From assembly GCA_963706745.1 (NCBI GenBank), contig CAVPMX010000002.1:204936-268935 (forward strand): 64,000 bases of DNA, given 5' to 3'. The notes beneath the pieces were generated by a model that searched no databases, was not told the DNA's origin, and worked only from the letters and a program-made list of their open reading frames with translations. Below are positions 4,408 through 52,121 of the stretch, in pieces (positions within the stretch are counted from its first letter, which is position 1; each line of letters opens with the position of its first letter). The DNA is from an uncultured Actinomycetes bacterium (GTDB lineage: Bacteria; Actinomycetota; Acidimicrobiia; IMCC26256; PALSA-610). The translations under genes were made by a program, and so were the position numbers.

Positions 4408-4823
4408 CGCTCCCGGGAGGTTCCGCCCACGCGACGGTCCTGGCGGCGGGCGGAGTTGTGATCCGAGGCACGGGCGAGGCCGCCGAGGTCCTCCTGGTGC
4501 ACAGACCGCGCTACGACGACTGGAGCCTGCCCAAGGGCAAGGTCGACGACGGCGAGACCGACGAGGAGGCCGCGATTCGTGAGGTGGAGGAGGAGACCGC
4601 CGTGACCGCCGAGCTGATCGACGAGCTCGCGACCATCCGCTACACCGACCACAAGGGACGTCCCAAGAGGGTGCGCTACTGGCGGATGCGCGTCGTCGCC
4701 GAGGGGGACCTGATCCCGACCGAGGAGGTCGACGAGGCTCTCTGGCTGACTCTCGGCGAGGCGGTGTCGCTGCTCACGTACGAACACGACCGCGCCCTTC
4801 TGTCGTCGCTGAGGAGACCGTGA
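4404..4823 (+). CDS. Nudix hydrolase (MutT1 N-domain-like)
   Basis: Tail of track ORF 3186..4823 contains a Nudix box: LPKGKVDDGETDEEAAIREVEEETAV. The TTG at 4404 overlaps the ppk stop; the exact start is uncertain (alternative GTG ~4458). Confidence 0.8.
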   Translation: MTLPGGSAHATVLAAGGVVIRGTGEAAEVLLVHRPRYDDWSLPKGKVDDGETDEEAAIREVEEETAVTAELIDELATIRYTDHKGRPKRVRYWRMRVVAEGDLIPTEEVDEALWLTLGEAVSLLTYEHDRALLSSLRRP

Positions 4824-5284
4824 CCCTCTACCTCCTGCGACACGCGAAGGCCGGGTCCAGGTCGTCGTGGGACGGCGAAGACCGCCTCCGCCCGCTCTCC
4901 GGAACGGGTCGTCGGCAGGCAGCCCGGATCGCCGAGAGCCTGGCGGGACTCCCGTTCGCGCGAGTTCTTAGCAGCCCGTACACGCGGTGCACCGAGACGG
5001 TCGCCCCGGTCGCCGGGTCGCGCGGCCTCGCCGTCGAGGAGACCGACGCTCTCGCCGAGGGTGCCCTGCTCCCCGACGTCCTCGCTCTCGTGGGCGCCGT
5101 CTCCGCCGGTGGAGCCGTCCTATGCAGCCACGGCGACGTGATACCGATGCTCCTCGACCACTTCGCGTCGACCGGCCTCGAGCTCGGTCCCGAACCGGCG
5201 TGCAAGAAGGGCTCGATCTGGGTCATCGACACGGACGTGCCCGAACACCCCATGGCCCGATACCTCGAGCCACCGCTCTCCTGA
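4820..5284 (+). CDS. histidine phosphatase family protein (SixA-like)
   Basis: MTLYLLRHAKAG (RHG-type catalytic motif) and CSHGDVIP. The GTGA overlap with the Nudix stop implies translational coupling. Confidence 0.8.
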   Translation: MTLYLLRHAKAGSRSSWDGEDRLRPLSGTGRRQAARIAESLAGLPFARVLSSPYTRCTETVAPVAGSRGLAVEETDALAEGALLPDVLALVGAVSAGGAVLCSHGDVIPMLLDHFASTGLELGPEPACKKGSIWVIDTDVPEHPMARYLEPPLS

Positions 5285-5402
5285 GCGTTCGACGCCGCCG
5301 TTCGTGGGAGCGTGCTCGTCTTCGTCTCGCCCACGCTCGCCGAGCCCCGCGGTCGTAGACTCGCACCGTCGCGACGCAACCGCGTCCGCCGAGAGGAGGG
5401 GC

Positions 5403-5510
5403 ATGACAATCGAGTCCGGCCGGTTGGCCGCCGACACCCCCTCCTCCGCCTACCTCGAGACACGGCGCGTCACGCACGAGTGCGAAGCCGTGCCCTCCGG
5501 ACTCGCGTGA
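5403..5510 (+). CDS. possible 35-aa small ORF
   Basis: ATG preceded by a strong SD (GAGAGGAGGGG, ~3 nt spacer). No recognisable similarity. Speculative. Confidence 0.2.
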   Translation: MTIESGRLAADTPSSAYLETRRVTHECEAVPSGLA

Positions 5511-5524
5511 AGTGGGAGGCGTCG

Positions 5525-5854
5525 ATGGTGCGGTTCTCCGACCTGATGGGCAACGGCGACGGTCCTGACGACGAGTCGTCTCAAGGCGGGAGCCCCGGTG
5601 CTCCGGCCGTACCGACACCCGTTGCCGAGGTGCCGACCGCCGAGGGGGCCTCACAATCGTCTACGCCGGCACGGCCGCCGGGGCCCGACGAACGACCGGG
5701 AGCTCTCCCGCCCGACTCGGGTGCCCCCACGCCCGCCGCCTCCCCGGCGGCGGACACCCCGCCGGATCGCGAGCGGGACACCGAAGCAGGCCCCGAGAGG
5801 CCGGCTCCGGCGTTCGACGACGACCTGCTCCCCCGGCGGAGGCGCCGGCGGTGA
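5525..5854 (+). CDS. hypothetical Pro/Ala-rich disordered protein (109 aa)
   Basis: ATG 5525 preceded by a GGGAGG SD. Low-complexity sequence ending in RRRRRR. In-frame part of track ORF 5312..5854. Confidence 0.35.
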   Translation: MVRFSDLMGNGDGPDDESSQGGSPGAPAVPTPVAEVPTAEGASQSSTPARPPGPDERPGALPPDSGAPTPAASPAADTPPDRERDTEAGPERPAPAFDDDLLPRRRRRR

Positions 5855-5891
5855 TGCAGTCGCGCGCAAGGTGTCGCCGAATCGTCTGCGC

Positions 5892-6596
5892 CTAGATCGG
5901 CTCGTACCTGTAGCCGACGCCGCGCACGGTCACGATCCGGGCCGGGTTCGCCGGGTCCGGCTCGACCTTCGAGCGGAGCCGCTTGATGTGCACGTCGAGG
6001 GTCTTCGTATCTCCGTAGTAGTTCGGCCCCCACACCCGGTCGATGAGCGCGTCGCGTGTCAGCACCCTGCCCGCGTTGTGGAGAAGCGTCTCGAGCAGCT
6101 CGAACTCCTTGAGCGGCAGCGACACCCCCTCGCCGCGCACGAAGACTTCGTGTCGCGCCGTGTCCATGCGTACGTCGCCCACCTCGATCACTTCACGGCT
6201 CTCTGCGGACGGTCGGCTCGCGGTCGGGGCGCGCCGCAGGGCGGCCCTCACGCGGGCGACCAGCTCCCGCAGGCGGAACGGTTTCGTCACGTAGTCGTCG
6301 GCACCGACCTCGAGGCCCACGACAGCGTCGATCTCACCCGCCCTCGCCGTGACCATGATGATCGGTACACGCGAGCGCGCCCTGATCTCGCGACAGACGT
6401 CGATCCCCGACACGTTCGGGAGCATCACGTCGAGCAGGACCACGGCCGGGTTCACTGCGTCGAAGACCTCTAGCGCCTCGGCACCGTCGGACGCCGTGAC
6501 CACCGCGAAGCCCTCGCTCTCGAGTGCGACGCTCAGAGCGTCGCGGTACGACTGCTCGTCGTCGACAACCAGCACCAGGGGGGGATCCGCCATCAC
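5892..6596 (-). CDS. regX3: OmpR-family response regulator (RegX3/PhoP-type)
   Basis: LVLVVDDE...VVLLDVMLPNVSGIDVCREIRARSRVPIIMVTARAGEIDAVVGLEVGADDYVTKPFRLRELVARVRAALRR plus a winged-helix C-terminus. Closely RegX3-like. 4-nt overlap with the upstream kinase gene. Confidence 0.9.
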   Translation of the reverse strand: MMADPPLVLVVDDEQSYRDALSVALESEGFAVVTASDGAEALEVFDAVNPAVVLLDVMLPNVSGIDVCREIRARSRVPIIMVTARAGEIDAVVGLEVGADDYVTKPFRLRELVARVRAALRRAPTASRPSAESREVIEVGDVRMDTARHEVFVRGEGVSLPLKEFELLETLLHNAGRVLTRDALIDRVWGPNYYGDTKTLDVHIKRLRSKVEPDPANPARIVTVRGVGYRYEPI

Positions 6597-7897
6597 GCTC
6601 CTCCGGGTTCTGTGTCGGCCCCACCCCGGGCAGCCGGCAACTCGTCGTCGCGAGCGCTGCTCGTGGCTGCTCCGTCGGTGTCGAGGGCCGGGAGCACGAC
6701 GCAGAACCTCGAGCCCTCGCCCTCGCGCGACTCGACGGTGACCTCGCCGCCGTGGGCCCGCACCGTGTGCCGCACGATCGAGAGGCCGAGACCCGTCCCC
6801 CCGGTGTCGCGGCTCCGGGCACGGTCCACTCGGTAGAAGCGTTCGAAGATCCGCTCGAGGTGGCGGCTGGGGATCCCGTACCCCTCGTCGCTCACCGCTA
6901 TGGAGACGCTCCCAGCCGAGGCGGAGACCGACACCTCGACCCGCGAGCCCCTCTCCGAGTACTTGACGGCGTTCTCCAGCAGGTTCACCAGGGCGCCGAC
7001 CAGACGGCGGCGGTCCCCCGCGACAGCGGCCCCCGCGGAGCTGTCGGCGACGTCGAGGGAGGTGCCGGCGGCGACCGCCAGGGCCCTGACCCGATCGACG
7101 GCCTCGGCGACGATCTCGCGGACAGGGACCGGGTCTCTCAGCGGCGTCGCGTCGGCCTCGATCGCGCTCAGGTCGAGGAGATCGTCGACAATTCGACCTA
7201 GACGCTCCGCCTCCCGCACTATCCGCTCGGCGAGACGCTCCCTGACAGCCGCCTCCTGCGCCGTCGCTATCGTCTCGCCGAGCAGCACGACGGCTCCGAT
7301 CGGCGTTCGGAGCTCGTGGCTGACGTTGGCGACGAAGTCGCGCCGCACGCTGTCGACCCGCCGGGCGCCCGAGACGTCCTCGACGACGGCGAGCGCGCCG
7401 GCGCCCCCGCCCGCCTGCTGCAGGCGGTGCGCTCGCAGGAAGAGCTCCCGCCTCGGCGGGCCGTAGAGGCTCAGCTCGCGCGCCACTACCTCGCCTCTGC
7501 GCGCCTCGTCGAGTGCCTGCTCGACGGCCTCGTCGACGAGCGCCCCGGACGGCCCGTCGGCGCTCAGAGCATCGGCGGAGCGGTTCCGCAGCACGATCTC
7601 ACCTTCAGCACCCGAGACCACGATCGCCTCGGCCACGCCGTCGAGGGCGGCCCGCAGCAGCGCCGTCACCGTCTCGGCATCTCCGACGCGCTCGAGAACG
7701 GCTGCGGCAGCGCTCTCCAGCTCGGAGAGGACCTCCTCTGAACCTGCCGTGAGCGACACGGGTGCGCCGCTCCGAAGCCGGGCCGCTACCCCGGCCGATC
7801 TCCGCAGGTCCCTCCCGCGCGCCCGGGACACGACGAACGCTCCCGCCGCCACGGCGACCACTGCGACCACGGCGCCCCAGATCATCAGGTTGTTCAC
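6593..7897 (-). CDS. senX3: sensor histidine kinase (SenX3/PhoR-type)
   Basis: N-terminal TM helix, H-box FVANVSHELRTPI, and N/G boxes LVNLLENAVKYS and GGTGLGLSIV. Confidence 0.9.
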   Translation of the reverse strand: MNNLMIWGAVVAVVAVAAGAFVVSRARGRDLRRSAGVAARLRSGAPVSLTAGSEEVLSELESAAAAVLERVGDAETVTALLRAALDGVAEAIVVSGAEGEIVLRNRSADALSADGPSGALVDEAVEQALDEARRGEVVARELSLYGPPRRELFLRAHRLQQAGGGAGALAVVEDVSGARRVDSVRRDFVANVSHELRTPIGAVVLLGETIATAQEAAVRERLAERIVREAERLGRIVDDLLDLSAIEADATPLRDPVPVREIVAEAVDRVRALAVAAGTSLDVADSSAGAAVAGDRRRLVGALVNLLENAVKYSERGSRVEVSVSASAGSVSIAVSDEGYGIPSRHLERIFERFYRVDRARSRDTGGTGLGLSIVRHTVRAHGGEVTVESREGEGSRFCVVLPALDTDGAATSSARDDELPAARGGADTEPGGA

Positions 7898-7995
7898 CGC
7901 TCCGCCCGAGGCGAGGTGCGGCCGGCGGCGGTCCGAGTTGAGTGGCGACGGCGCGTCGGGGAGACTTCCCCGCGCCCGCCAGACTCGGAGGTCCC

Positions 7996-8616
7996 GTGGT
8001 GAGATTCCGGCTGCTCCCCCGCGACGAGGGGTTCTTTCCGCTCTTCGACGCCGCCGCCGAGAACATTGCCGAGTGCGCGCGCAGGCTGAGGACGATCATC
8101 GGCGACCTCACAGACCTCGAGGCCAAGCAGAGACTCGTCGTCGAGTGCGAGAAGCGCGGCGACGAGCTCACCTCGACGATCCTCACGCGCCTCAACTCCT
8201 CTTTCGTGACGCCCTTCGACCGCGAGGACATCCACGCCCTCACCGAGATGCTCGACGACGTCGTCGACGACATGCAGGCTGCCTGCGACCTCCTGTTGCT
8301 CCACAACGTGACGGCACCTCTCCCCGACATGGGTGAGATGGGCGACATCCTCGTGCGGGCGGCAGAGGCGACGGTCTCGCTGATCTCGAAGCTGCCCCGA
8401 CTGCGCGGCCTCGAGAGCGATCTCGCAGCCATAGACGAGCTCGAGAGTGCTGCCGACAGCATCTACCGCCGATCCGTCGCCCATCTGTTCTCCGGCGACT
8501 ACGACGCGTTCGACGTGCTCAAGTGGAAGGACGTGGTCGAGTCGATCGAGGCCGCCGTCAACGCCATAGAGCGCATCTCCGACATCGTCGAGAGCATCGC
8601 GCTCAAGCACGCCTGA
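7996..8616 (+). CDS. DUF47/PhoU-like phosphate transport regulator (Pit accessory protein)
   Basis: VVRFRLLPRDEGFFPLFDAAAENI...FVTPFDREDIHALTEMLDDVVD matches the TIGR00153/DUF47 family. GGAGG SD sits before GTG 7996/7999. Immediately upstream of pit. Confidence 0.85.
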   Translation: MVRFRLLPRDEGFFPLFDAAAENIAECARRLRTIIGDLTDLEAKQRLVVECEKRGDELTSTILTRLNSSFVTPFDREDIHALTEMLDDVVDDMQAACDLLLLHNVTAPLPDMGEMGDILVRAAEATVSLISKLPRLRGLESDLAAIDELESAADSIYRRSVAHLFSGDYDAFDVLKWKDVVESIEAAVNAIERISDIVESIALKHA

Positions 8617-8623
8617 GCTGACG

Positions 8624-9615
<992 letters not shown>

Positions 9616-9616
<1 letters not shown>

Positions 9617-9825
9617 TGGACCACCGCGCGGTCTTCTTCCTCGCGGCCTCGGCTATGTGCGCCGCGCTGTGGCCGCTCGCGCCCACGGATACGCGCTGGG
9701 TGAACGTGTGGCTCGCGGTCGCCTACGTGGTTCTCGCGCTCGCATCGCTCGCCGACTTCGTCTCGCGCCGTCGCCAGACCGGGCGAGAAGCGGCTGAACC
9801 CCCGGACTCCGCCCGCCCCACCTAG
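9616..9825 (+). CDS. small membrane protein (69 aa), coupled to pit
   Basis: ATGA overlap with the pit stop. Two hydrophobic helices (AVFFLAASAMCAALWPLA, VWLAVAYVVLALASLA). In frame with track ORF 9274..9825. Confidence 0.4.
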
Positions 9826-41838: not shown

Positions 41839-41871
41839 GGCGGCCTACCGGCTCGGGATCGAGCCCGGGAA

Positions 41872-42303
41872 TCAGGTCGCGGCGGCCGTGGCGTTCGCCG
41901 CAGCGGCGTCGGCAGCGGTCCGCTCGTCGGCGAGGTCACGCGCGAGCTTCAACCCGAAACCGGCGGAGAGCGCCGCCACGACGCCGACCACGCGCGCGTG
42001 CCAGCCGAGCTTCGGCGAGAAGAGACAGACCGCTGCATCGACGCCGTCGGCGATCGCCGACATGCCGAGCCACTCAGGTCCGTGACTCCCCTCCTTGATC
42101 GCGCTCAACGACCCGATGCCGAGCACGACGTCGCGCGCTCCCATCATTCGGGCGACCGCTCGCGTCGTGGGTCCGGTGGCGCCGGCCCCCAGCCAGGATC
42201 GGGCCGACGTCGCCGGGGCGACGAGCAGAGCGAGCCCTGCGACGGCACGGGTCCGGGTGAAGACGAGCGCTGTGCTTCGGAGGTCCTGCTCCATGGCCGT
42301 CAT
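41872..42303 (-). CDS. small hydrophobic membrane protein
   Basis: Predicted helices (AVAGLALLVAPA, VVLGIGSLSAI, VVGVVAALSAGFGL). Its start overlaps the stop of the upstream gene by 4 nt. The start choice (42303 vs 42294) is uncertain. Confidence 0.5.
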   Translation of the reverse strand: MTAMEQDLRSTALVFTRTRAVAGLALLVAPATSARSWLGAGATGPTTRAVARMMGARDVVLGIGSLSAIKEGSHGPEWLGMSAIADGVDAAVCLFSPKLGWHARVVGVVAALSAGFGLKLARDLADERTAADAAAANATAAAT

Positions 42304-43289
42304 CCTCGCGCGCCGTCCGGCGGTCGCACCCACTCTGCCCAACCGGAGCCTTCTGCGCCTTCTCCCGAGCGGGCACGGCAGAGGCACCGCACGACGTGCC
42401 CTCCCCGCTCGGAGCCACCCGGGGCCCAGAGGTCATCGAGCGACACCGGGAACGCTGCAATTACATCGACGTCGAGGTCGACCGTGTGGTTGACGACGGA
42501 GCGCGCTGCCACGGGGATGCGGTCGGCGTCCCGGTGGACCTCGCCGACCAGCTCGTCGACGGGTCGACCGCCGGCCTCTGCGCTCCACAGGTACCCAGCC
42601 GGCTCACCGCCGGGCGGCGGCAGCATCAGCCCCGTGGCGAGCGACTCCCCCAGTTGGAACGCGGCGCGGCCGTCCCAGCGCGTCCACCACGGAGGCCCGC
42701 CCCACGAGTGCCCCCGCGCGCCGAGCCCCGAGATGGCGAGACTCATCGACGTCCCCAGATGGAGCTCGCCGTGAACCGAGCAGACCTGCTCGTAGAGGCC
42801 CTCCACGAGCTCACCGCCTCCGCGGCCGCGATCTCCGGTCCGGTCGAGCCGGCCCGTGCCGAACGTCATCGGCGGGGCGGTCGACTCGACGTCGAGCTCG
42901 AACGCGATCGGGAGGCGCTCCCCGTACTCGCTCGCCAGCGCCTCGACCGGGTCCTCCACGCGGACCCCGTACGTCTCGAGGCCGACCGTCCAGTAGTGCA
43001 GAGGCTCCTCGGCCACGTGATCGGCCCACATCTGCTCGCCGCGGACGAGGAGGCGTCCCGCGCCCGGCAGCGGTAGGTCGTGGTCGCGGACGGCGACGCG
43101 TGTGCCGTCGGGGAGAACCACGTGCGCCCAGTACCAAGTGCGCGCCCGCGACGGGAATGAGGCGACGCGAACCGCGACGCCGGCGCCGTCGCCCGTCGAG
43201 ACCTCGAACCACCATGCCTCGCACCAAGCCGGACCCGCGTCCGGGCCCGGTTCGTGGGAGTGCTCGTCGTCCGTGGAGACGGTCGGCAT
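42300..43289 (-). CDS. hypothetical protein (329 aa), family not recognised
   Basis: Last 329 codons of track ORF 42300..44495, from MPTVSTDDEH. Trp-rich, non-repetitive (AWCEAWWFEV, HSWGGPPWWTRWDG). The upstream part of that track ORF is an off-frame overlap of the next gene. Confidence 0.6.
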   Translation of the reverse strand: MPTVSTDDEHSHEPGPDAGPAWCEAWWFEVSTGDGAGVAVRVASFPSRARTWYWAHVVLPDGTRVAVRDHDLPLPGAGRLLVRGEQMWADHVAEEPLHYWTVGLETYGVRVEDPVEALASEYGERLPIAFELDVESTAPPMTFGTGRLDRTGDRGRGGGELVEGLYEQVCSVHGELHLGTSMSLAISGLGARGHSWGGPPWWTRWDGRAAFQLGESLATGLMLPPPGGEPAGYLWSAEAGGRPVDELVGEVHRDADRIPVAARSVVNHTVDLDVDVIAAFPVSLDDLWAPGGSERGGHVVRCLCRARSGEGAEGSGWAEWVRPPDGARG

Positions 43290-43333
43290 CGCCCATCCCT
43301 CTGCGCAGCCGCGGCCCGGTCGGACCGCTCGGC

Positions 43334-44467
43334 TCACGGGATCAGAGGGTAGTAGGGACCGTCGCGAGTGATCTCGGGTGTGCTCTCGAAAGCCTCGAGC
43401 ATCGGGTAGAGGTCGAGACTGTCGCGAGGCATGCTCCAGTCGAGATCGCCGGTACATCCCGCGGCGTCGGCGAACGGTCTGATGAACGAGTAGTAGACGT
43501 ATGCCCCCGCGTCGATCTTCTCGCGCCTCTCCATGCCGGCGATCAGCCTGTAGCAGCGCTTCTGGGCGTCCTTCACGGCGGCGGCCAGAGCGTCGGCACC
43601 GGCGGAGTCGATCGGCGCGAGTCGCCCGCCCGACGTGTCGAAGAGGCCGAACGACTGCACGTGCGGCAGGTAGTCCTCCGGCTCGGTCAGCGAGGTGCCC
43701 CAGTCGGTCACCCTCAGGCGGACGCCGTCGAGCACGAACGCCGCGAGCACGTTGTCGTTCGGGAGGTCGCACGCGACCTCGGCACTCCACGGGAAATCGG
43801 AGACACCGAACTTGTTGAACGCCCGCAGCAGCAGCACGCGTCCGTCGGGGAGGACGTACGGGCCGGTGTCCTGGTAGCCCGCACGCGTGTCGAAGTAGAG
43901 GAGGAAGAGGTAGGAGGTGAGGAGCGCATTGAGGCGCTGGATCTTGGAGCGCCGCTCGTCGGTGACGGGTTCGCACCCGGCTACCACCTCGTCGACGTAT
44001 TCGGAGTACGGGCGGTTGACGCCACCGGTGTCCCACGCCTGGTGCGCGGCCCCCGCGTGGTACGCCCGGGCGGCGCGCTCCCAGAACTCGACCATGATCC
44101 CGCAGCGCGCGAGGTCTTCGTCCCAGTCGATCATCCCGGCAGTTGCGAGGACGTTGCGCCCGGTCAAGAAGATGTTGGTGAGCGACCACAGGTGCACCGC
44201 ATCGACCTGGTTGCCGACCGTGCGACCGGTCGCGCCGATCTCCTCGGGCGGCCTCGCCGCCGCGACCACTCGCAGCATCTCCGGGTGGCGTCGATAGCAC
44301 TCGATGCCCGAGATGAGGATGTATGCCGTCACCGGGATGAGGGCCGACTCCAACGCCGTGCGCTGCACGGTGAGCGTGTAGGAGATCTCCCCGTGGTACT
44401 CCAGCCACCGATTGACGGCGGCCTTGTCCCACCCGGCCGGCGGCTCGAGAGCTCCCGCGCCGCTCAC
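43334..44467 (-). CDS. hypothetical protein (377 aa), family not recognised
   Basis: Balanced, globular-looking composition (WLEYHGEISYTLTVQRTALESALIPVTAYILISGIECYRRHPEML...YVYYSFIRPFADAAGCTGDLDW). 4-nt overlap with the upstream gene. Confidence 0.65.
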   Translation of the reverse strand: MSGAGALEPPAGWDKAAVNRWLEYHGEISYTLTVQRTALESALIPVTAYILISGIECYRRHPEMLRVVAAARPPEEIGATGRTVGNQVDAVHLWSLTNIFLTGRNVLATAGMIDWDEDLARCGIMVEFWERAARAYHAGAAHQAWDTGGVNRPYSEYVDEVVAGCEPVTDERRSKIQRLNALLTSYLFLLYFDTRAGYQDTGPYVLPDGRVLLLRAFNKFGVSDFPWSAEVACDLPNDNVLAAFVLDGVRLRVTDWGTSLTEPEDYLPHVQSFGLFDTSGGRLAPIDSAGADALAAAVKDAQKRCYRLIAGMERREKIDAGAYVYYSFIRPFADAAGCTGDLDWSMPRDSLDLYPMLEAFESTPEITRDGPYYPLIP

Positions 44468-44811
44468 GCGGGCCGCCGGACGACGCCCAGCTCACCGCTG
44501 CAGTCGATCTCGACCGTGTCGCCGTTCGCCGGCTCGTCGCCGAGGGTGGTGCCCATGACGCACGGCACCTGGTACTCGCGACTCACGATCCCCACGTGGC
44601 TCTGCGGGGTGCCCGAGAGGCAGACGACGGCCGTGAGCTCGTCGAAGATCGGGGCGAGGAACGTCGCGCCCGCGTCGGCCACGCAGGCCACGACCCCCTC
44701 GGCCGACCCGTCCATCAGATCGAGGACGTCGTCGGGGGAGTCGAGCCGCCGCCACACTCCCTGCACCGGTGCCGCGTCGAAGACCTTTGTTCCGCTTCCG
44801 ATCTCGCTCAT
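44464..44811 (-). CDS. stand-alone PEP-utilising-enzyme mobile (swivel phosphohistidine) domain protein
   Basis: GVVACVADAGATFLAPIFDELTAVVCLSGTPQSHVGIVSREYQVPCVMG resembles the PF00391 swivel domain with the candidate phospho-His. ATG 44811 has a GGAGCGGAG SD. An in-frame 31-codon extension from ATG 44904 is possible. Confidence 0.8.
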   Translation of the reverse strand: MSEIGSGTKVFDAAPVQGVWRRLDSPDDVLDLMDGSAEGVVACVADAGATFLAPIFDELTAVVCLSGTPQSHVGIVSREYQVPCVMGTTLGDEPANGDTVEIDCSGELGVVRRPA

Positions 44812-45055
44812 GATCTCCGCTCCTGGCCCTGCGGGCCGGGCCGCTCGGGCCACGCTCGGCCAGCGCGGGACGCGAGCTCTCTCGTACAGGGCAGCCTCGC
44901 TCATGATCTCCGCTCCTGGCCCTGCGGGCCGGGCCGCTCGGGCCACGCTCGGCCGCGCGGGACGCGAGCTCTCTCGTGCTGGGCAGCCTCGCTCATGATC
45001 TCCGCTCCTGGCCGCGCGGGACGCGAGCTCTCTCGTACAGGGCAGCCTCGCTCAT
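44812..45055 (-). repeat. tandem array of three MIRU-like units (93, 92 and 59 bp) forming uORFs in the operon leader
   Basis: Minus-strand ATGs at 45055, 44996, 44904 and 44811. uORF-C: MSEAALYERARVPRGQERRS* (ATGA overlap). uORF-B: MSEAAQHERARVPRGRAWPERPGPQGQERRS* (ATGA overlap). Unit A (93 bp) reads through in frame into the gene. The 3' ~45 bp are near-identical to the 35.1-kb units. Confidence 0.9.
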
Positions 45056-45166
45056 CGGCGGGGGAGCCTACCGAGGACCGCACGGGGAGGCGAAACGCGC
45101 AGCGCCGGTGACCGAGAGCGGCTCCGGCGTGCCTTCGCGGAGTCCCGCCCCGTACGATCGCAGCCC

Positions 45167-45775
45167 GTGAGCGATCTACCGCCCGACCACGACGCCTGGG
45201 AGCTCCTGCACGACCTCCGTCTGCGGGGCCTGGTCGAGGAGTCCGAGCACGAGCACGCCGACCTCCTGGTCGAGATCGGCTTCGCCGTCCGCAAGCGGAC
45301 CTACCTCGCCGTGACCCCCGAAGGCCGGGAGCGCCACGCCGCATGGGTGCGCGTCGCCGACGACGCACCCGAGTACGACGCCGCTCGCCGCGCCTACGAG
45401 GCCTTCCTGCCGCTCAACGTCGAGCTGATCCGCCTCTGCTCCGACTGGCAGGTCCGTCCGGGCAACGTCGCGAACGACCACACCGATCTCCGCTACGACT
45501 GGGGCGTCGTCGACCGCCTGCGTGCGCTCGACGAACGAGCCGGTGGCGTCATCCGCCGCCTGGCGAGGGCCGTACCCCGATTCGCCTCATACCGACCCCG
45601 CCTGCGCGACTCCCTGCGCCGTGTCGAGGACGGGGACAACGACTGGTTCACCTCACCCCGCATCGACTCGTATCACACGGTCTGGATGCAGATGCACGAG
45701 GACCTGCTGGCGACCCTCGGCCTGTCCCGTGCGGACGAGGACCCCGGGCCAGAGCCTCCTCCGCCGGGCGCCTGA
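45167..45775 (+). CDS. hypothetical protein (202 aa)
   Basis: GTG start. Non-repetitive sequence (…DWQVRPGNVANDHTDLRYDWGVVDRLRALDERAGG…DSYHTVWMQMHEDLLATLG). Divergent from the PEP-domain operon. Family not recognised. Confidence 0.6.
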   Translation: MSDLPPDHDAWELLHDLRLRGLVEESEHEHADLLVEIGFAVRKRTYLAVTPEGRERHAAWVRVADDAPEYDAARRAYEAFLPLNVELIRLCSDWQVRPGNVANDHTDLRYDWGVVDRLRALDERAGGVIRRLARAVPRFASYRPRLRDSLRRVEDGDNDWFTSPRIDSYHTVWMQMHEDLLATLGLSRADEDPGPEPPPPGA

Positions 45776-45841
45776 CCCTCCCCTCGGACTCGCGCGGCGC
45801 CGGAGACGCACCGCGCCGCCCAGGGATGCGAGCATGGTGAG

Positions 45842-47365
45842 GTGTCGGAGGACCTGTTGGGCGAATCGGTGCGCGAGCTCGTGGAGCGGATCCGCCCCGC
45901 CGTGCTCGCCTGGCCCGAGGCCGAGGGCGCCGACTCCGACGGTGTGACGGCCGGCCTGCTGGCGGAGGCACGGCGGATCGCCGCGGCGTTCGTCGCCGCC
46001 GACGGGCGCCTCAACGACCGACAGCTCATCGCAATGCGCCTGGCGTTCGGAGCGAGAGACCCCGAGCTCGCGAATGGACCGCTCACCGCTCTGCGCACGA
46101 CCGACGTCATCACCCGCGACGCCGGCTTCACGTCGCAGCCGTCACCGCTCTTCCTGCAGCTGGCCGAGTACGACCGCTCCCACGGGACCTCCACTGCGTG
46201 GTCGTACTACGAGGCAGCGTTGGGCGTCGCGCACGCTGTCTGCGCCCTCGCCGACATACCGACGCGCGAGGTGCTCGACTCGCTCGACCGCTATCGCGCG
46301 ATGCTCCTCGAGAACCTCAGGGCTTCCTACATCGTGCGCCCGAAGCCCCCGGAGACCACCGGCGCGCGACCCGACGGGTCGAGACAGGGCGACGCCGGCA
46401 AGGCGGAGTCCGACGCCGTGGCCGCGAGATGGCACGACCCGGCCGCTCTCGGCGGACTGCCCGGTGAGGAGCCCGCCGTCGCCCCCACGCTCGACGGCCT
46501 CCTCGACGAGCTCGACGCGTTGGTCGGCCTGACCGACGTGAAGACCGAGGTGCGGCTCATCGTCAACCTGACGCGTGTCGAGAAGATGCGCGGCGACCAC
46601 GGCCTGCCGGTGCCGGATCGCAGCAGGCACCTCGTCTTCGTCGGCAATCCGGGCACCGGCAAGACGACCGTCGCCCGCCTCCTCTCCCGCATCTACGGGG
46701 TCCTCGGCGTGCTCGCGAAGGGCCACCTCGTCGAGACCGATCGCTCGGGCCTCGTGGCCGGTTACGTCGGCCAGACCGCCATTCGGGTGCAGGAGACAGT
46801 GACATCCTCCCTGGGCGGCACGCTCTTCATCGACGAGGCGTACTCGCTCAGCGGCGGAGGAGACCGCGACTTCGGCGCCGAGGCAGTGGCGACGCTCCTC
46901 AAGCTGATGGAGGACCGGCGCGACGAGCTGGTCGTCGTCGCCGCCGGGTACCCGAAGCCCATGCAGCGCTTCCTCGACTCCAACCCGGGGCTGCGCTCCC
47001 GGTTCCCGAAGACGATCCTCTTCCCCGATTACTCGACCGACGACCTCGTGAGGATCTTCGCCTCGATCGGCGAGGGCCAGAAGTACGTCGCTACCTCCGA
47101 TGCACTCGGGGTCGTGCGCGGATTCCTCGACGCGCAGGAGCGCGGCCCGACGTTCGGGAACGCCCGCCTGGCGCGCAACCTCTTCGAGGCCTCGGTCGCC
47201 CACCACGCGAGCAGGGTCGTCGAGCTGGGGGCGCCCGGCGTCGAAGAGCTCAGCACTCTGCGCCCCGAAGACATCCCCGCCGCGGGCGCCCAGCTCGACC
47301 CGGCGCACGACCCCGAACACGACACCGCGCACGGCACCGCGGCTTGCGGAGATGCGCCTTGCTGA
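45842..47365 (+). CDS. AAA+ ATPase of the CbxX/SpoVK/EccA type with an unassigned N-terminal domain
   Basis: LVGLTDVKTEVRLIVN, Walker A GNPGTGKTTVARLL, Walker B TLFIDEAYSL, and VVVAAGYPKPMQRFLDSNPGLRSRF. The N-terminal ~230 aa may be TerB-like (AAFVAADGRLNDRQLIAMRLAF); that assignment is inference only. Confidence 0.85.
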   Translation: MSEDLLGESVRELVERIRPAVLAWPEAEGADSDGVTAGLLAEARRIAAAFVAADGRLNDRQLIAMRLAFGARDPELANGPLTALRTTDVITRDAGFTSQPSPLFLQLAEYDRSHGTSTAWSYYEAALGVAHAVCALADIPTREVLDSLDRYRAMLLENLRASYIVRPKPPETTGARPDGSRQGDAGKAESDAVAARWHDPAALGGLPGEEPAVAPTLDGLLDELDALVGLTDVKTEVRLIVNLTRVEKMRGDHGLPVPDRSRHLVFVGNPGTGKTTVARLLSRIYGVLGVLAKGHLVETDRSGLVAGYVGQTAIRVQETVTSSLGGTLFIDEAYSLSGGGDRDFGAEAVATLLKLMEDRRDELVVVAAGYPKPMQRFLDSNPGLRSRFPKTILFPDYSTDDLVRIFASIGEGQKYVATSDALGVVRGFLDAQERGPTFGNARLARNLFEASVAHHASRVVELGAPGVEELSTLRPEDIPAAGAQLDPAHDPEHDTAHGTAACGDAPC

Positions 47366-47376
47366 CCTCTCCCGGG

Positions 47377-48492
47377 ATGTCTCCGGTCCTCAAGCGCGCT
47401 CTTGCACTCGTCGCCGCCATCGGGATGGTCGGAGCCGCGCTCGTCATCCGATCGGTCGTCTTCGACGACGAGACCGCGGGAACCGATGGCACGGGCGGCG
47501 ACGGAACCGTCATCGGCGCCGCGCGACTCATCTGCGCCACCGAGCTCGAGAGCGCATGCCGCTCCCTGGCCGATCGACTCGGCGACGACATCACGGTCGC
47601 GACAGAGGATGCCGGCGCGACCGCAGCGCGGCTCGTCGACGCCGCACCCGGCGACGACCCCGGTCTCGACGGATGGCTGACCCTCTCGCCATGGCCTCAG
47701 ACGGTCGCGGACTCACGTGCGCGGTCCAACGCCCGACCGGTCCTCGGAGCGGTCTCCGATCCGGTGGCTCGTTCGCCCCTGGTCATGGTGGTGCGCTCCG
47801 ACCGCGCCGAGGTGCTCGCCCCGCGCTGCCCGGACCGCACCCTGGGCTGGCGCTGCATAGGCGATGCTGCCGGCCGCCCGTGGAGCGAACTCGGCGGCGA
47901 GGAGACCTGGGGCAGCGTCAAGCTCGCCCACGAGGACGCGACCGGCTCAGCATCGGGAGCGCTCCTGGTGGGCCAGGCGGTGGGGCACTACCTCGCGACA
48001 CCCGAGATACCCGCGACGGCGATCTCCACGATCGACTGGGAGACGAGCGACGGCTTCGCTGCCTGGTTCCAGCGCCTCGAGGGCGCCGTGCCACGCAACG
48101 GCTTCGACCCTCCCGCCGGGAGCCCGTTCGCCCAGTTCCTCCAGGGGCGCTTCGTCGAGTACGACATCGTCGCCGCGCTCGAGGCCGAGGTCGGCCCTGC
48201 CCTCGCCCGGGCGTCCGGGCTGGGGGACTCGGTGGTGGTGGCTTACCCTGAGCCCGTGGGCACCGCCGACGTCGTCTTCGTACCGCTCCTCCGCAGCGAC
48301 TCCGCAGATCGCCTGCGCGAGTCGGCCACCGGGCCCGAGGCGCGCTCGTCCATCGCTGCGGCGGGCTGGCGCGTCGAGGGCGAAGACCGCGCTGCAGGGG
48401 TCCGCGACTCACCGCCGCTGCCCGACGGGAACGGTCTTCCCTCGGCAGGCGCAATCGACGCGCTGACGTACGCTGTGGGAGGAGGTCACCCG
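47377..48492 (+). CDS. membrane-anchored solute-binding-like protein (no stop codon before the next gene's ATG)
   Basis: First third of the 1045-aa track ORF. N-terminal TM helix (LALVAAIGMVGAALVI). The body is paralogous to the SBP-like part of the following protein. Confidence 0.55.
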
Positions 48493-50481
48493 ATGACCAG
48501 CCGCTCTTCGACCCGGGAGATCAGGGGCGACAACGGGCGCCGCCGCCCACGCCCCGGGATCCGGTTGTTCGGCGCGCTTCTCGCCGTCGCGCTCACTGCC
48601 GCGGCCTGCGGGGGCGACGACTCCGAGGTGTTGGGCGACGACGCCGACCTGCTCGACCCGGGCGACTGCCTCCCAGTCGACATGGCCGTCTCGTCGGAGA
48701 AGATCGCACTGCTCACAGATCTCGCGCAGGAGTTCAACGCCTCCGACGCCGCCGACCTCGGCGATGGCGAGTGTGTGTTCGTCAGGGTCCAGAAGAAGGC
48801 CTCCGGAAAGGCGATGCAGCTGCTCTCCGACGGCTGGTCCGACGAGGCCACCGACGGCCCCCAACCGGTCGTCTGGTCGCCCGCCGCCTCGTCGTGGGGC
48901 GCAATCCTCAACCAGCGCCTCGCCGAGCGCGGTGCCGACCCGATGGTCGGCTCTGCCGAGCCGTTCATGCTCACCCCACTGGTGATCGCGATGCCGGAGC
49001 CGATGGCCGAAGCGCTCGGGTACCCGCAGACGCCTATCGGATACGCCGACATCATCGCCCTCGCCCAGGACCCCGAAGGCTGGGGTGCGTTCGGGCATCC
49101 TGAGTGGGGCCCGTTCCGGCTCGGCAAGACGAACCCCAACTACTCGACCAGCGCACTCTCGGCGACGATCGCGCAGTACTACGCGGCGACGGGCAAGACG
49201 AGGGGGCTCTCGCTCGAAGACCTCGATCGGCCCGCCGTGGTGACCTTCGCGAAGGCGGTGGAGGGTGCCGTCGTCCACTACGGCGACATCACCATGACGT
49301 TCCTCAACAACTGGTTCCGCAACGACGCCCGCGGCACCGCCCTCACGTATGTCTCAGCCGTCGCCGTCGAGGAGAAGTCGGTCATCGACTACAACCTCGG
49401 CAACCCCGACGGCATCCTCGATCCGGGAGAGGACCCGCGCAAGCCGCGGGTCCCTCTCGTCGCGGTCTACCCGAAGGAAGGCACGCTCTACAGCGACAAC
49501 CCCTTCATGGTCCTCGACGCTCCGTGGGTCACCGATCAGGAGGCGGCTGCGGCGGAGCGCTTCGGCGACTACGTCATGCGCCCCGAAGCCCAGGAGCGGG
49601 TCGCGGAGTACGGGTTCCGGCCCGGCAACCCCGAGGTGGCCATCGGGGGCGGTGTCACGACGGCGAACGGCGTGGACCCGGACCAGCCGGAGACCCTCCT
49701 GGAGGTCCCGGAACCGGCAGTGCTGAGCGGCCTGCTCGACAGGTGGGACGGCGTCCGCAAGCGGGCGCGCGTGCTGATCGTCCTCGACGTCTCCGGCTCG
49801 ATGGGCGAGGAGGGCGACACCGTCACGGGAGAGACCAAGCTGGATCTGGCGAAGGACGCCGTGACCGATGCACTCGACCAGTTCCAGACCGACGACGACG
49901 TCGGCCTGCGCGTCTTCACCACCGACCTCGTCGACGAACCGACCGACTACGCCGACCTGGTTCCCGTCGAGGCGATCGGCGGACAGCGCGAAGGGCTGGC
50001 ACGACGCATCGACGACCTCATCCCGATGAACGGCACACCGCTCTACACCGTCACGCAGGGCTCCTACCGCGACATGCTCGACGCGTTCGTCCCCGATCGC
50101 ATCAACGCGATCGTCCTCTTGACCGACGGCCGCAACGAGGATCCGCGCAACGAGGACCTCGAAGCGTTGCTCAAGGAGCTGCGCGCGCAGGCCGAGGGCG
50201 AGAGCGCGAAGCCCGTGCGGATCTTCCCGATCGCCTACGGCGCCGACGCCGACCTCGACACGCTCAGGCGGATCGCGGAGGCTACGAACGCCGCCGTATA
50301 CGACGCATCCGACCCGACGACGATCTCGTCGGTGTTCACGGCGGTGGTCAGCAATTTCCAGGGACGCCCGTGGCCCGCGGTGTCCTCCGGCGGAGATGTC
50401 CGCGGTAGTCGGCGCGCACACGGCGCCCCGATGGGTCGTGTGAGATCAGCATGGCGATCGACCGCCTTCCAGAGCACCTGA
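48493..50481 (+). CDS. lipoprotein with a solute-binding-like domain plus a C-terminal VWA domain
   Basis: Internal ATG 48493 has a GGGAGGAGG SD. Signal/lipobox LFGALLAVALTAAACGG. VWA MIDAS VLIVLDVSGSMGEEG...LLTDGRNED. The C-terminal ~40 aa after VVSNF look non-native. Confidence 0.8.
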   Translation: MTSRSSTREIRGDNGRRRPRPGIRLFGALLAVALTAAACGGDDSEVLGDDADLLDPGDCLPVDMAVSSEKIALLTDLAQEFNASDAADLGDGECVFVRVQKKASGKAMQLLSDGWSDEATDGPQPVVWSPAASSWGAILNQRLAERGADPMVGSAEPFMLTPLVIAMPEPMAEALGYPQTPIGYADIIALAQDPEGWGAFGHPEWGPFRLGKTNPNYSTSALSATIAQYYAATGKTRGLSLEDLDRPAVVTFAKAVEGAVVHYGDITMTFLNNWFRNDARGTALTYVSAVAVEEKSVIDYNLGNPDGILDPGEDPRKPRVPLVAVYPKEGTLYSDNPFMVLDAPWVTDQEAAAAERFGDYVMRPEAQERVAEYGFRPGNPEVAIGGGVTTANGVDPDQPETLLEVPEPAVLSGLLDRWDGVRKRARVLIVLDVSGSMGEEGDTVTGETKLDLAKDAVTDALDQFQTDDDVGLRVFTTDLVDEPTDYADLVPVEAIGGQREGLARRIDDLIPMNGTPLYTVTQGSYRDMLDAFVPDRINAIVLLTDGRNEDPRNEDLEALLKELRAQAEGESAKPVRIFPIAYGADADLDTLRRIAEATNAAVYDASDPTTISSVFTAVVSNFQGRPWPAVSSGGDVRGSRRAHGAPMGRVRSAWRSTAFQST

Positions 50482-51224
50482 AGTCGAGGCGCACAGCCGA
50501 GGCGATCATGGCACCATCGGCAATACTCGCCGGTGGCGCCGGCGCATCAGCCGCAATCCTGGCGGGCGTCGGCCTCCTGCCCGTCGTGGCGGTCGGGCTC
50601 GCCGCGTACGCGGCGCTGGTCGTGTTCCGCCTGCCACGCGGCCCGCGGCCGGCCGCCGGCATCGACCCCAAGACCCTCTCCGAGACGTGGCGGCGCTTCG
50701 TGGCGGAAGCACTGCAGGCTCGTCGCCGGTTCGACGAGGTGCTGCGCACGGCTCGGCCCGGACCCGTCCGCGACCGGCTCGCCGACATCGGCTCGCGCCT
50801 CGACACAGGGGTGCAGGAGTGCTGGCGGATCGCACGGCGAGGCGACGCGCTCGAGGACGGGCTGGCGACCCTCGACATCCAGGAGGTGCGCGCCGACCTC
50901 GCCGAGCTGCAGCGCAGTGGGCTGGATCCCGCAGCGAGCGAGCGCGACGAGTCGGCGTACCTCAGCACGGTCGAGGCGCTCGAGGCGCAGATCGCGACGG
51001 CGGAGCGGATCCGCGCCGTGGCCACCGATGCGCAGGCGCGGCTCCGTCTCCTCGATGCACGGCTGGACGAGGCGGTGGCCAGGGCCGTCGAGCTCGCCCT
51101 ACAGGCCGGGGATGCCGCCGACCTGGCCGGCCTCGGCAGTGACGTCGACGCCCTGGTCGGCGACATGGAGGCCCTGCGCCAAGGTCTCGAGGAGGCCGCC
51201 CACGCCTCCTCCCCCCAGACCTAG
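50451..51224 (+). CDS. membrane protein with a long cytoplasmic coiled-coil, PspA-adjacent
   Basis: Two TM helices (AILAGGAGASAAILAGVGLLPVVAVGLAAYAALVVF), then heptad-rich Ala/Leu/Arg/Asp helices. Confidence 0.6.
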   Translation: MAIDRLPEHLKSRRTAEAIMAPSAILAGGAGASAAILAGVGLLPVVAVGLAAYAALVVFRLPRGPRPAAGIDPKTLSETWRRFVAEALQARRRFDEVLRTARPGPVRDRLADIGSRLDTGVQECWRIARRGDALEDGLATLDIQEVRADLAELQRSGLDPAASERDESAYLSTVEALEAQIATAERIRAVATDAQARLRLLDARLDEAVARAVELALQAGDAADLAGLGSDVDALVGDMEALRQGLEEAAHASSPQT

Positions 51225-51311
51225 GAGCGTCGACAGACCTCACATCGTGTGGTCGGTCGACGCTCCTGGTCACCGGTGCGGGGGAGGCGGTCGCGGGGTT
51301 AGGCTCGGCAC

Positions 51312-52121
51312 ATGCTGAAGCTCCTGCGCCGCTGGTGGAAGTACATGACCGCGAGGCTCTCGGGGAAGTTCGAGGAGTCCGCCGACCCCAAGACCCAGCT
51401 CGAGCAGGCGATCGCCGAGGCGCAGGACCAGCATCGGCGCCTCACCGAGCAGGCCGCCAACGTCATAGCGCACCAGAAGCAGACGCAGATGCGTCTCGAC
51501 AGGGCCCAGCAGGACCTCGACAAGGCAACGGGGTCGGCGCGCCAGGCGCTGCTCCTCACCGACGAGTCGACCCAGAAGGGCGACGCCGCCAAGGCCCTCG
51601 AGTACCAGCAGGCCGCCGAGAGCTTCGCCAACAGGCTCATCGCCCTGGAGCGGGAGGTCGAGGGGCTCAAGCAGATGCTCCTCGACGCAGCCCGGGCAGC
51701 CGACCAGGCGAAGGGCTCCGTCTCGCAGAACGCCCTCGCTCTCCAGAAGAAGCTCTCGGAGCGCCAGAAGCTGCTCAGCCAGCTGGATCAGGCGAAGATG
51801 CAGGAGCAGATGAACAAGGCGATGGCCCAGTTGAGTGCCACCGTCGGCGAAGACGTCCCCACCTTCGACGAGATCCGCGAGAAGATCGAGACGCGCGTCG
51901 CTCGCGCCGAGGGCATGGCGGATCTCACCTCGACCTCGGTGGAGGGCCGGATGGTCGAGGTGGAGCAGGCCCAGATGAACGCCGAGGCGCAGGCTCGCCT
52001 CTCGGAGCTCCGCACTCAGCTCGGCCTGCCCGGCGCCGCTGCTGCTCCTGACTCGGCGGCCGCCGAGTCAGGTGCCGAGTCGGCGACGGAGCAGCCCGGA
52101 GAGGGCGCCTCCCCCGCCTGA
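51312..52121 (+). CDS. pspA: PspA/IM30 family protein
   Basis: KTQLEQAIAEAQDQHRRLTEQAANVIAHQKQTQMRLDRAQQDL... is the typical PspA coiled-coil architecture. Confidence 0.9.
   Translation: MLKLLRRWWKYMTARLSGKFEESADPKTQLEQAIAEAQDQHRRLTEQAANVIAHQKQTQMRLDRAQQDLDKATGSARQALLLTDESTQKGDAAKALEYQQAAESFANRLIALEREVEGLKQMLLDAARAADQAKGSVSQNALALQKKLSERQKLLSQLDQAKMQEQMNKAMAQLSATVGEDVPTFDEIREKIETRVARAEGMADLTSTSVEGRMVEVEQAQMNAEAQARLSELRTQLGLPGAAAAPDSAAAESGAESATEQPGEGASPA

Follow-up and report, generated by a model that had tools for sequence, protein, structure and literature searches.

A conserved gene neighbourhood of PspA with an AAA+ ATPase and exported SBP/VWA proteins as a candidate membrane-stress module in Acidimicrobiia and Nitriliruptoria

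Whether genes that lie side by side on one strand work together or are neighbours by chance is a question raised by a cluster at positions 45167–52121, plus strand, of a 64,000-nucleotide stretch of Acidimicrobiia-related DNA (the window, 71% GC). In this cluster pspA, which encodes PspA/IM30, is preceded by genes for an AAA+ ATPase, two proteins that resemble solute-binding proteins (SBPs), one of them with a VWA domain, and a membrane protein with two transmembrane (TM) segments. The genes are called g1 to g6 in their order along the plus strand, g6 being pspA. An initial annotation described six co-directional genes and proposed that they form an envelope-stress module. All six elements are indeed present on the plus strand at the positions given, and frame analysis based on GC content at third codon positions (GC3) indicates plus-strand coding across the cluster and supports every gene described, but g1 does not belong to the unit and g3 and g4 form a single open reading frame (ORF) in this copy. 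The evidence favours a functional module over adjacency by chance, although we infer all functional links in it. With moderate confidence, the cluster can be regarded as a lineage-specific PspA membrane-stress module of Acidimicrobiia and Nitriliruptoria that was built on an older three-gene trans-membrane unit.

This reading is carried first of all by conservation. Genomes, one for each species, were scanned with an alignment of g5 homologues, which yielded 80 loci that belong mainly to Acidimicrobiia and further to Nitriliruptoria (Euzebya, Egibacteraceae). The nearest relatives of the window are metagenome-assembled genomes of Acidimicrobiia, and the closest locus, L001, served as the reference for DNA comparison of the lesions described below. 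Gene presence was counted by tblastn among loci with enough flanking sequence. The best-conserved gene of the cluster is g4, found in 75 of the 80 loci at 57–92% identity; g3 is present in all 62 assessable loci, pspA lies downstream of g5 in 63 of 72, and the AAA+ gene g2 lies upstream in 49 of 57. Where g5 is distant (32% identity), g4 is still directly upstream of it. The spacing is tight, with median gaps of 9 nt between g2 and g3 (overlapping in 17 of 41 loci), −4 nt between g3 and g4 (overlapping in 46 of 52), 8 nt between g4 and g5, and 48 nt between g5 and pspA. The genes g3, g4 and g5 co-occur and are translationally coupled, and the conservation of gene order in dozens of species-level genomes of two classes is far beyond chance. 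The conserved unit therefore comprises the five genes from g2 to pspA, and beyond it conservation of the flanks is limited to close relatives. Since the association is both conserved and tightly spaced among loci of Acidimicrobiia and Nitriliruptoria, the functional linkage, initially put forward from adjacency in one genome, now has a broader foundation.

In some loci other genes have entered the unit. A gene for the lipid II flippase MurJ (Pfam, 2e-85) lies between g5 and pspA in seven loci (L028, L036, L039, L040, L044, L056 and L060), a cyclopropane-fatty-acid-synthase-like (CMAS) gene occupies the same position in two (L016 and L022), and an enoyl-CoA hydratase gene is found between g4 and g5 in some loci. 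The envelope functions of MurJ and the cyclopropane-fatty-acid-synthase-like protein suggest an envelope theme; the window itself has no MurJ or CMAS homologue.

The two SBP-like proteins are predicted to face the cell exterior. The g4 product (48493–50481; all features of the cluster are on the plus strand) is an exported lipoprotein with a signal peptide and lipobox Cys39, an SBP_bac_11 domain at residues 64–376 (E 7e-17, 62 bits against a cut-off of 25) and a VWA domain at residues 427–615 (Pfam, E 2e-9), of which the closest solved relatives are BatB-like. Its metal-ion-dependent adhesion site (MIDAS), with the sequence DVSGS encoded at 49786–49800, is intact as annotated: D432, S434, S436, T515 and D545 are invariant in 28 orthologues. 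A signal peptide occurs in all g4 orthologues and a lipobox in many. The g3 product (47377–48492) is bitopic, with an N-terminal TM anchor followed by an extracytoplasmic SBP-like domain. It has no direct match in Pfam, and a profile search of PDB sequences was also empty, but alignment of its ectodomain with the SBP domain of g4 by hhalign (probability 97%, E 7e-11, 247 columns) reveals paralogy and bears out its annotation as a TM-anchored SBP-like protein. The anchor (hydropathy >2) is kept in nearly all of 56 orthologues, and C53, C61 and C160 are invariant. Both g3 and g4 have export signals as well as conserved pairs of cysteines. The extracytoplasmic location of the two proteins is predicted because the TM anchor and the signal peptide, respectively, are kept across orthologues. 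Neither the window cluster nor the related loci examined contain genes for an ABC permease or an ABC ATPase, and the possibility that the SBP proteins belong to an ABC-type solute uptake system was rejected for that reason.

In the window copy, g3 runs in frame into g4: positions 47344–50481 form one 1045-codon ORF with no stop between the two genes, whereas each of the 69 comparable loci has g3 and g4 as separate ORFs, which usually overlap at ATGA. When the DNA is aligned pairwise with L001, a one-base insertion that abolishes the g3 stop is located near 48465 (48460–48472). When one base is removed near this position, the conserved g3 C-terminus LWEEVTR is obtained, followed by TGA at 48494–48496; the insertion has thus caused loss of the ATGA stop/start overlap and fusion of g3 to g4. 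A strong Shine-Dalgarno sequence, GGAGGAGG (48478–48485), is positioned 7 nt upstream of the g4 start codon at 48493 and is identical in L001. A second lesion is found at 50359–50361, where alignment with L001 shows CAG in place of the TAG stop codon of g4 in relatives. The conserved g4 protein ends at 50358, and the 40-codon non-conserved tail is the product of read-through after loss of the stop, which also explains the apparent overlap of g4 and g5. Accordingly, the description of two separate SBP genes was right in a functional sense but does not hold for the reading frame in this copy, and of the short or overlapping spacers, the coordinates of which (47365/47377 and 50481/50451) are correct, the second owes its overlap to the lost stop. 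The two lesions are either assembly errors or real mutations that mark early decay.

The next gene, g5 (50451–51224), encodes a protein of 257 residues. One 45-residue hydrophobic stretch was detected by hydropathy and is modelled as a helical TM hairpin (residues 19–63) with almost no external loop; a cytoplasmic helical bundle (residues 78–253) follows, and the AlphaFold2 model of the protein has a pLDDT of 84. The annotation as a two-TM membrane protein is in agreement with this, and the predicted topology is N-in/C-in with a large cytoplasmic helical domain. An N-terminal cytoplasmic motif, DRLPEHLKSRRT, is conserved in an alignment of 30 homologues, and for this reason the ATG at 50451 is taken as the start rather than the annotated internal Met, which would give a 238-residue version. 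The protein has no match in Pfam, NCBIfam or PDB, including a profile search of PDB sequences, and an exhaustive profile search collected 1063 cluster representatives of its family at E≤1e-3. Longer members carry a TerD domain, a winged helix-turn-helix plus BTAD domain (SARP-type) or a Ser/Thr kinase domain N-terminal to a complete g5 module. Because of these fusions, the module can be considered a membrane-anchored signalling or docking element, and a role as adaptor or transducer is suggested. The TerD–g5 fusion adjoins another TerD gene. The kinase–g5 fusion lies behind an FHA gene, the other strand carrying a cluster of g3-like, SBP+VWA and PspA genes, with a Band_7 gene nearby; the link of g5 to g3/g4 and PspA survives rearrangement. 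The fusion loci are L084 (GCA_036502765.1) at 2377–9655 for the kinase, L081 at 281–2444 for TerD, and L083 at 5861–7420 for the SARP-type protein.

The identity of pspA (51312–52121) as PspA/IM30 is firm, with a Pfam PspA_IM30 (PF04012) match over residues 4–236 (E 7.7e-33) that scores 114.4 bits against a cut-off of 33.9, and with Vipp1 and PspA as the nearest solved structures. No hydrophobic segment was detected in the protein by hydropathy. In an alignment of 64 orthologues a predicted basic amphipathic N-terminal helix alpha0, MLKLLRRWWKYMTARL (MLKLLRRWWKY), is conserved, as is a C-terminal helix, ARLSELRxxLGL, which precedes a low-complexity tail rich in Pro, Ala and Glu. The sequence RLSELR in the region of residues 225–245 (approximately) shares a superficial likeness, and no more, with the RLxxL(K/R) core of the MIM1 motifs of ESCRT-III.

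At the other end of the unit, g2 (45842–47365) encodes an AAA+ ATPase of 507 residues of the CbbX/SpoVK/EccA type. Pfam recognizes AAA (residues 265–395) and AAA_lid_6 (residues 420–478), both with E 1e-15, and the top NCBIfam matches are SpoVK (4e-79), EccA (5e-67) and CbbX (6e-64), in line with the initial assignment to the CbxX/SpoVK type. The scores remain below the equivalog cut-offs (265 against 423 bits for SpoVK, 216 against 459 for CbbX and 227 against 467 for EccA), and the N-domain is unrelated to the N-terminal regions specific to those families (TPR in EccA); the protein thus belongs to this group but is none of SpoVK, CbbX or EccA proper. The nearest solved structures are CbbX (2e-54) and EccA1 (1e-46). 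In alignments of 28 and 40 orthologues, the Walker A motif GNPGTGKT, the DE of Walker B, the pore loop YVGQT and the RSRF arginines are invariant, and the ATPase domain is apparently catalytically intact and active. Hydropathy detected no hydrophobic segment in g2, and searches for Sigma54_activat, HTH, MIT and Vps4_C domains gave no match.

The N-terminal part of g2, about 220 residues, has no Pfam or NCBIfam assignment, as annotated. It consists of a helical domain (residues 1 to about 165) and a disordered linker (about 166–215). The domain is modelled by AlphaFold2 as eight helices with a pLDDT of 92, and neither Foldseek nor a profile search of PDB sequences found a PDB match or an MIT-like structure. 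Wherever the AAA+ gene was examined among the loci, N-domain and ATPase are encoded in one ORF; a homologue search with the N-domain alone retrieved nothing, and full-length g2 was used instead. We are confident that the model represents a new all-helical fold and, next to g5, a second unannotated family. The earlier suggestion that the domain is TerB-like is not supported: TerB matches it weakly in one of 28 orthologues (E 0.015), and TerB structures are absent from its Foldseek and profile matches. A D-G-x3-D/E motif is present in the domain.

Sequence signals around pspA suggest separate expression of this gene. The hexamer TAGGCT at 51300–51305, which ends 6 nt before the pspA ATG, fits the −10-like pattern TANNNT. 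Such a hexamer (mostly TAGGCT or TAGGAT), located at −16 to −10 and with its first base 12–15 nt before the ATG of pspA, occurs in 51 of 67 loci, as compared to 0.34% of random positions and 0 of 66 before g4. In 14 loci the hexamer doubles as the stop codon of g5 and in 28 it is separate; loci that lack it have a Shine-Dalgarno sequence instead. A −10 element in this position is typical of actinobacterial leaderless promoters. Judged from its sequence context, pspA probably has its own promoter and a leaderless mRNA, and the likely layout is a g2–g5 (or g3–g5) unit with a separately promoted pspA. Between g5 and pspA, a stem-loop with a stem of about 20 bp (51222–51268) starts at the g5 stop codon; it has a minimum free energy of −46.7 kcal/mol as RNA (z-score −4.1), is retained in L001 by compensatory changes and is absent in L003–L005. 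It may be a terminator, an insulator or a processing site. A generic scan for sigma-70 promoters and terminators gave nothing useful with window DNA of 71% GC. A hexamer (TAACCT or TACGCT) is also seen 11–15 nt before the start of g3 in 20 of 54 loci, including L006, L007, L009, L010, L029, L041 and all loci that have only g3, g4 and g5, which hints at a separate leaderless promoter for the trio in cases where g2 is missing or does not overlap.

If the cluster functions as a membrane-stress module, a sequence of events can be envisaged. The g3 and g4 proteins would assemble at the outer membrane face into a complex that reports the state of the envelope, the input being a protein or wall ligand bound at the MIDAS or a small molecule in the SBP cleft. 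By analogy, the signal could pass through the TM helix of g3 to the hairpin of g5; since g5 has almost no external loop, the single helix of g3 would pack against this hairpin. The cytoplasmic bundle of g5 might then serve as a membrane docking or transducing platform for PspA, an ESCRT-III-superfamily polymer that would be recruited to g5 as the effector. The g2 hexamer, targeted by its N-domain, may use ATP to remodel, release or disassemble PspA assemblies, for which the action of Vps4 on ESCRT-III and that of PspF on PspA are the analogies. With an additional promoter of its own and a leaderless mRNA, as predicted, pspA would be inducible independently of the sensor genes. Of these steps, only the exported VWA/SBP pair at the outer face rests on more than analogy. 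The proposal of an envelope-stress module is strengthened in that the association is conserved and the predicted topology fits (exported g3 and g4, an N-in/C-in g5, cytoplasmic PspA and AAA+ ATPase), but PspA has to be seen as an added output rather than an obligate component.

A further and more tentative proposal, which we consider possible but improbable, is that g2 is the functional counterpart of Vps4, i.e. a single-ring unfoldase that is recruited by its N-domain to PspA polymers on g5 and gated by the VWA/SBP proteins. If true, ATP-driven turnover of ESCRT-III-type polymers has evolved, or was retained, in a bacterial lineage. [quoted passage not shown] The cluster is a testable candidate for the missing bacterial counterpart of the ESCRT-III/Vps4 pair, and an apparently active AAA+ protein with a dedicated N-domain beside PspA in two actinobacterial classes provides a pair for in vitro disassembly and binding tests. 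The likeness to ESCRT-III/Vps4 (CdvB/CdvC) consists of a gene for an ESCRT-III-superfamily polymer beside one for a single-ring AAA+ protein with an N-terminal helical domain and an aromatic pore loop. In contrast to Vps4 and CdvC, g2 lacks MIT and Vps4_C domains, belongs to the CbbX/SpoVK/EccA subfamily and has an eight-helix N-domain without PDB match.

Several observations weigh against the reading as a PspA membrane-stress module. In one clade only g3, g4 and g5 are present, with unrelated flanks, and because the trio exists there without PspA or AAA+ ATPase, PspA is better described as an added output than as an obligate partner. Of the loci with both flanks visible, 34 have the AAA+ gene as well as pspA, four have neither, one has pspA only and none has the AAA+ gene only. 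The trio-only loci are monophyletic and nested among complete clusters in a neighbour-joining tree of g4, from which it follows that the AAA+ and PspA genes were lost from the locus together in a single event; their joint absence thus counts as one evolutionary event. The PspA loci L044 and L058 and the kinase variant L084 are without the AAA+ ATPase, g2 is coupled most tightly to g3 and not to pspA, and pspA itself probably has its own promoter. The conserved motifs of g5 are kept in the PspA-less clade and hence are not PspA-specific. Relatives of known function could be detected neither for the N-domain of g2 nor for the g5 protein, two lesions affect g3 and g4 in the window copy, and every interaction is read from sequence.

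Of the other explanations, the one that survives best is a Ter-like or ion-responsive chemical-stress system, in which the SBP cleft and the MIDAS would bind an anion or a divalent metal, g5 would take part in a Ter-type membrane complex and PspA would only stabilise the membrane during the stress, with no dedicated signalling from g3/g4 to PspA. SBP_bac_11 is largely a family of oxyanion-binding proteins, g5 can be fused to TerD and adjoin a second TerD gene, cation transporter genes are neighbours (CDF in the window, MgtE in L084), and the weak TerB match to one of the 28 N-domains points in the same direction. However, Pfam and NCBIfam detect no TerB, TerC, TerD or TelA domain in the window cluster, fold and profile searches lend no support to a TerB-like N-domain, and the SBP proteins are not accompanied by an ABC permease or ATPase, so that we regard this explanation as unlikely.

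Partnerships between AAA+ ATPases and VWA proteins are a known theme. EccA prepares type VII substrates, and AAA+ ATPases of the MoxR type serve VWA partners. In a similar way, it can be asked whether g2 is a cytoplasmic chaperone or unfoldase that readies g3 or g4 for export or assembly, PspA merely buffering secretion or membrane stress. The relationship of g2 to EccA (NCBIfam) and EccA1 (structure) would agree with this, as would the finding that g2 is linked most tightly to g3, whose start overlaps the stop of g2 by 4 nt in 16 of 41 loci. On the other hand, an entire clade, as well as L044, L058 and L084, has the trio without g2, whereas g2 without PspA is found in no locus. Furthermore, g2 is not of the MoxR type, and the signal peptide of g4 places the VWA domain of this protein across the membrane from g2; less probability still is given to this chaperone role than to the Ter-like system. 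The specific MoxR/VWA logic was rejected, as g2 has a sub-threshold AAA_5 match only and the signal peptide/lipobox of g4 is family-wide. Finally, inherited synteny without shared function, with PspA and the AAA+ ATPase simply flanking an unrelated trio of surface proteins, is very improbable: pspA is preceded by a −10-like element of its own, some loci have unrelated genes between g4 and g5 or g5 and pspA, and the trio stands alone in one clade, but the order is kept across two classes with gaps that overlap or are near zero, PspA remains beside g3–g4 where g5 has moved and become a kinase fusion, and flanks outside g2–pspA are conserved only in close relatives.

The favoured membrane-stress module can be compared to PspA systems that are already described. 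Like the mycobacterial ClgR-PspA-PspM-PspN system (Rv2745c–Rv2742c), it is an actinobacterial arrangement of PspA beside a small two-TM protein thought to tether PspA, and both are without PspB, PspC and PspF. As the initial annotation noted, the two differ: the genes of the window cluster give no match to a ClgR-like (Cro-like) HTH or to PspN (DUF3046), g5 lies upstream of pspA instead of downstream and has a large cytoplasmic helical bundle, and genes for AAA+, SBP-like and SBP+VWA proteins are added. The searchable part of the comparative survey reports mycobacteria and corynebacteria as the only groups with PspM (PMC11237479). With the proteobacterial PspF-PspABC system the cluster has in common the theme of PspA with an AAA+ ATPase and membrane sensor proteins, but PspF belongs to the NtrC-type enhancer-binding proteins and carries a Fis HTH, whereas g2 is of the CbbX/SpoVK type without a DNA-binding domain, and PspB and PspC domains are lacking. 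In Bacillus LiaI-LiaH, a small membrane protein recruits a PspA homologue, as is proposed for g5; the membrane protein family is unrelated, however, regulation there is by the LiaFSR two-component system, and that system has no AAA+, SBP or VWA gene. MoxR-VWA pairs and the BatA/BatB aerotolerance proteins also combine AAA+ and VWA-MIDAS proteins in one operon, and the VWA domain of g4 is nearest to BatB-like ones; here the differences are that g2 is not MoxR-type and that the VWA domain of g4 is exported and fused to an SBP domain.

The nearest published theme is found in the searchable text of Ravi et al. (2024), which describes PspA operons with a secreted PBPB protein (+OmpA), an ABC transporter, Snf7 and tandem classical AAA+ proteins, with examples from Handelsmanbacteria, Archangium and Clostridium, and proposes ATP-dependent membrane remodelling (PMC11237479). 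As far as described there, those operons and the window cluster both link PspA to a secreted protein of periplasmic-binding fold and to an AAA+ protein of the classical type. The window cluster, from another phylum, has one active AAA domain instead of an inactive-plus-active tandem, is without ABC transporter, Snf7 and OmpA, and adds the VWA-MIDAS, a second SBP paralogue and the g5 family. The searchable text and supplement of two large comparative Psp surveys contain no mention of VWA, a SpoVK-type AAA+ protein or this arrangement. What is new here is a conserved PspA arrangement with an exported VWA/SBP pair and two unannotated families (g5 and the N-domain of g2). By this pair, PspA would be tied to the cell exterior, and g5 represents a family of some 1,000 clusters that is a recurrent fusion partner of kinases, SARP regulators and TerD.

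Outside the conserved unit, the first gene of the annotated cluster, g1 (45167–45775, 202 residues), has no match in Pfam, NCBIfam or PDB. Its orthologue in the closest genome is annotated as a MarR family regulator, and g1 is probably a MarR-like winged-helix regulator. Its membership of the cluster was rejected because tblastn found it in no more than 11 of 51 loci, in each of which the divergent upstream genes accompany it. The latter are, on the minus strand, a 160-residue PEP-utilizers mobile-domain protein (44946–44464) and an unclassified protein of 377 residues (44467–43334). In close relatives this minus-strand pair (43334–44946) and g1 travel together, and g1 may regulate the pair. 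The ORFs 43100–44998 (plus), 42300–44495 (minus) and 44596–45111 (plus) were rejected as genes, since frame analysis puts the real upstream genes on the minus strand.

Searches with PADLOC system models gave no system in the window, with weak generic AAA matches for g2 and none for the other genes, and an anti-phage defence system was rejected for lack of such a match. No Rfam families or tRNAs were found in the window. Further upstream, no Pfam match above threshold was obtained for a minus-strand ORF that ends at 42300 or for a stretch of weak coding signal at 41880–42330; a coding signal is present at 41840–43331, with no family assigned. Downstream of pspA, the opposite strand carries genes for a CDF cation-efflux protein and for an aspartate ammonia-lyase or fumarase.

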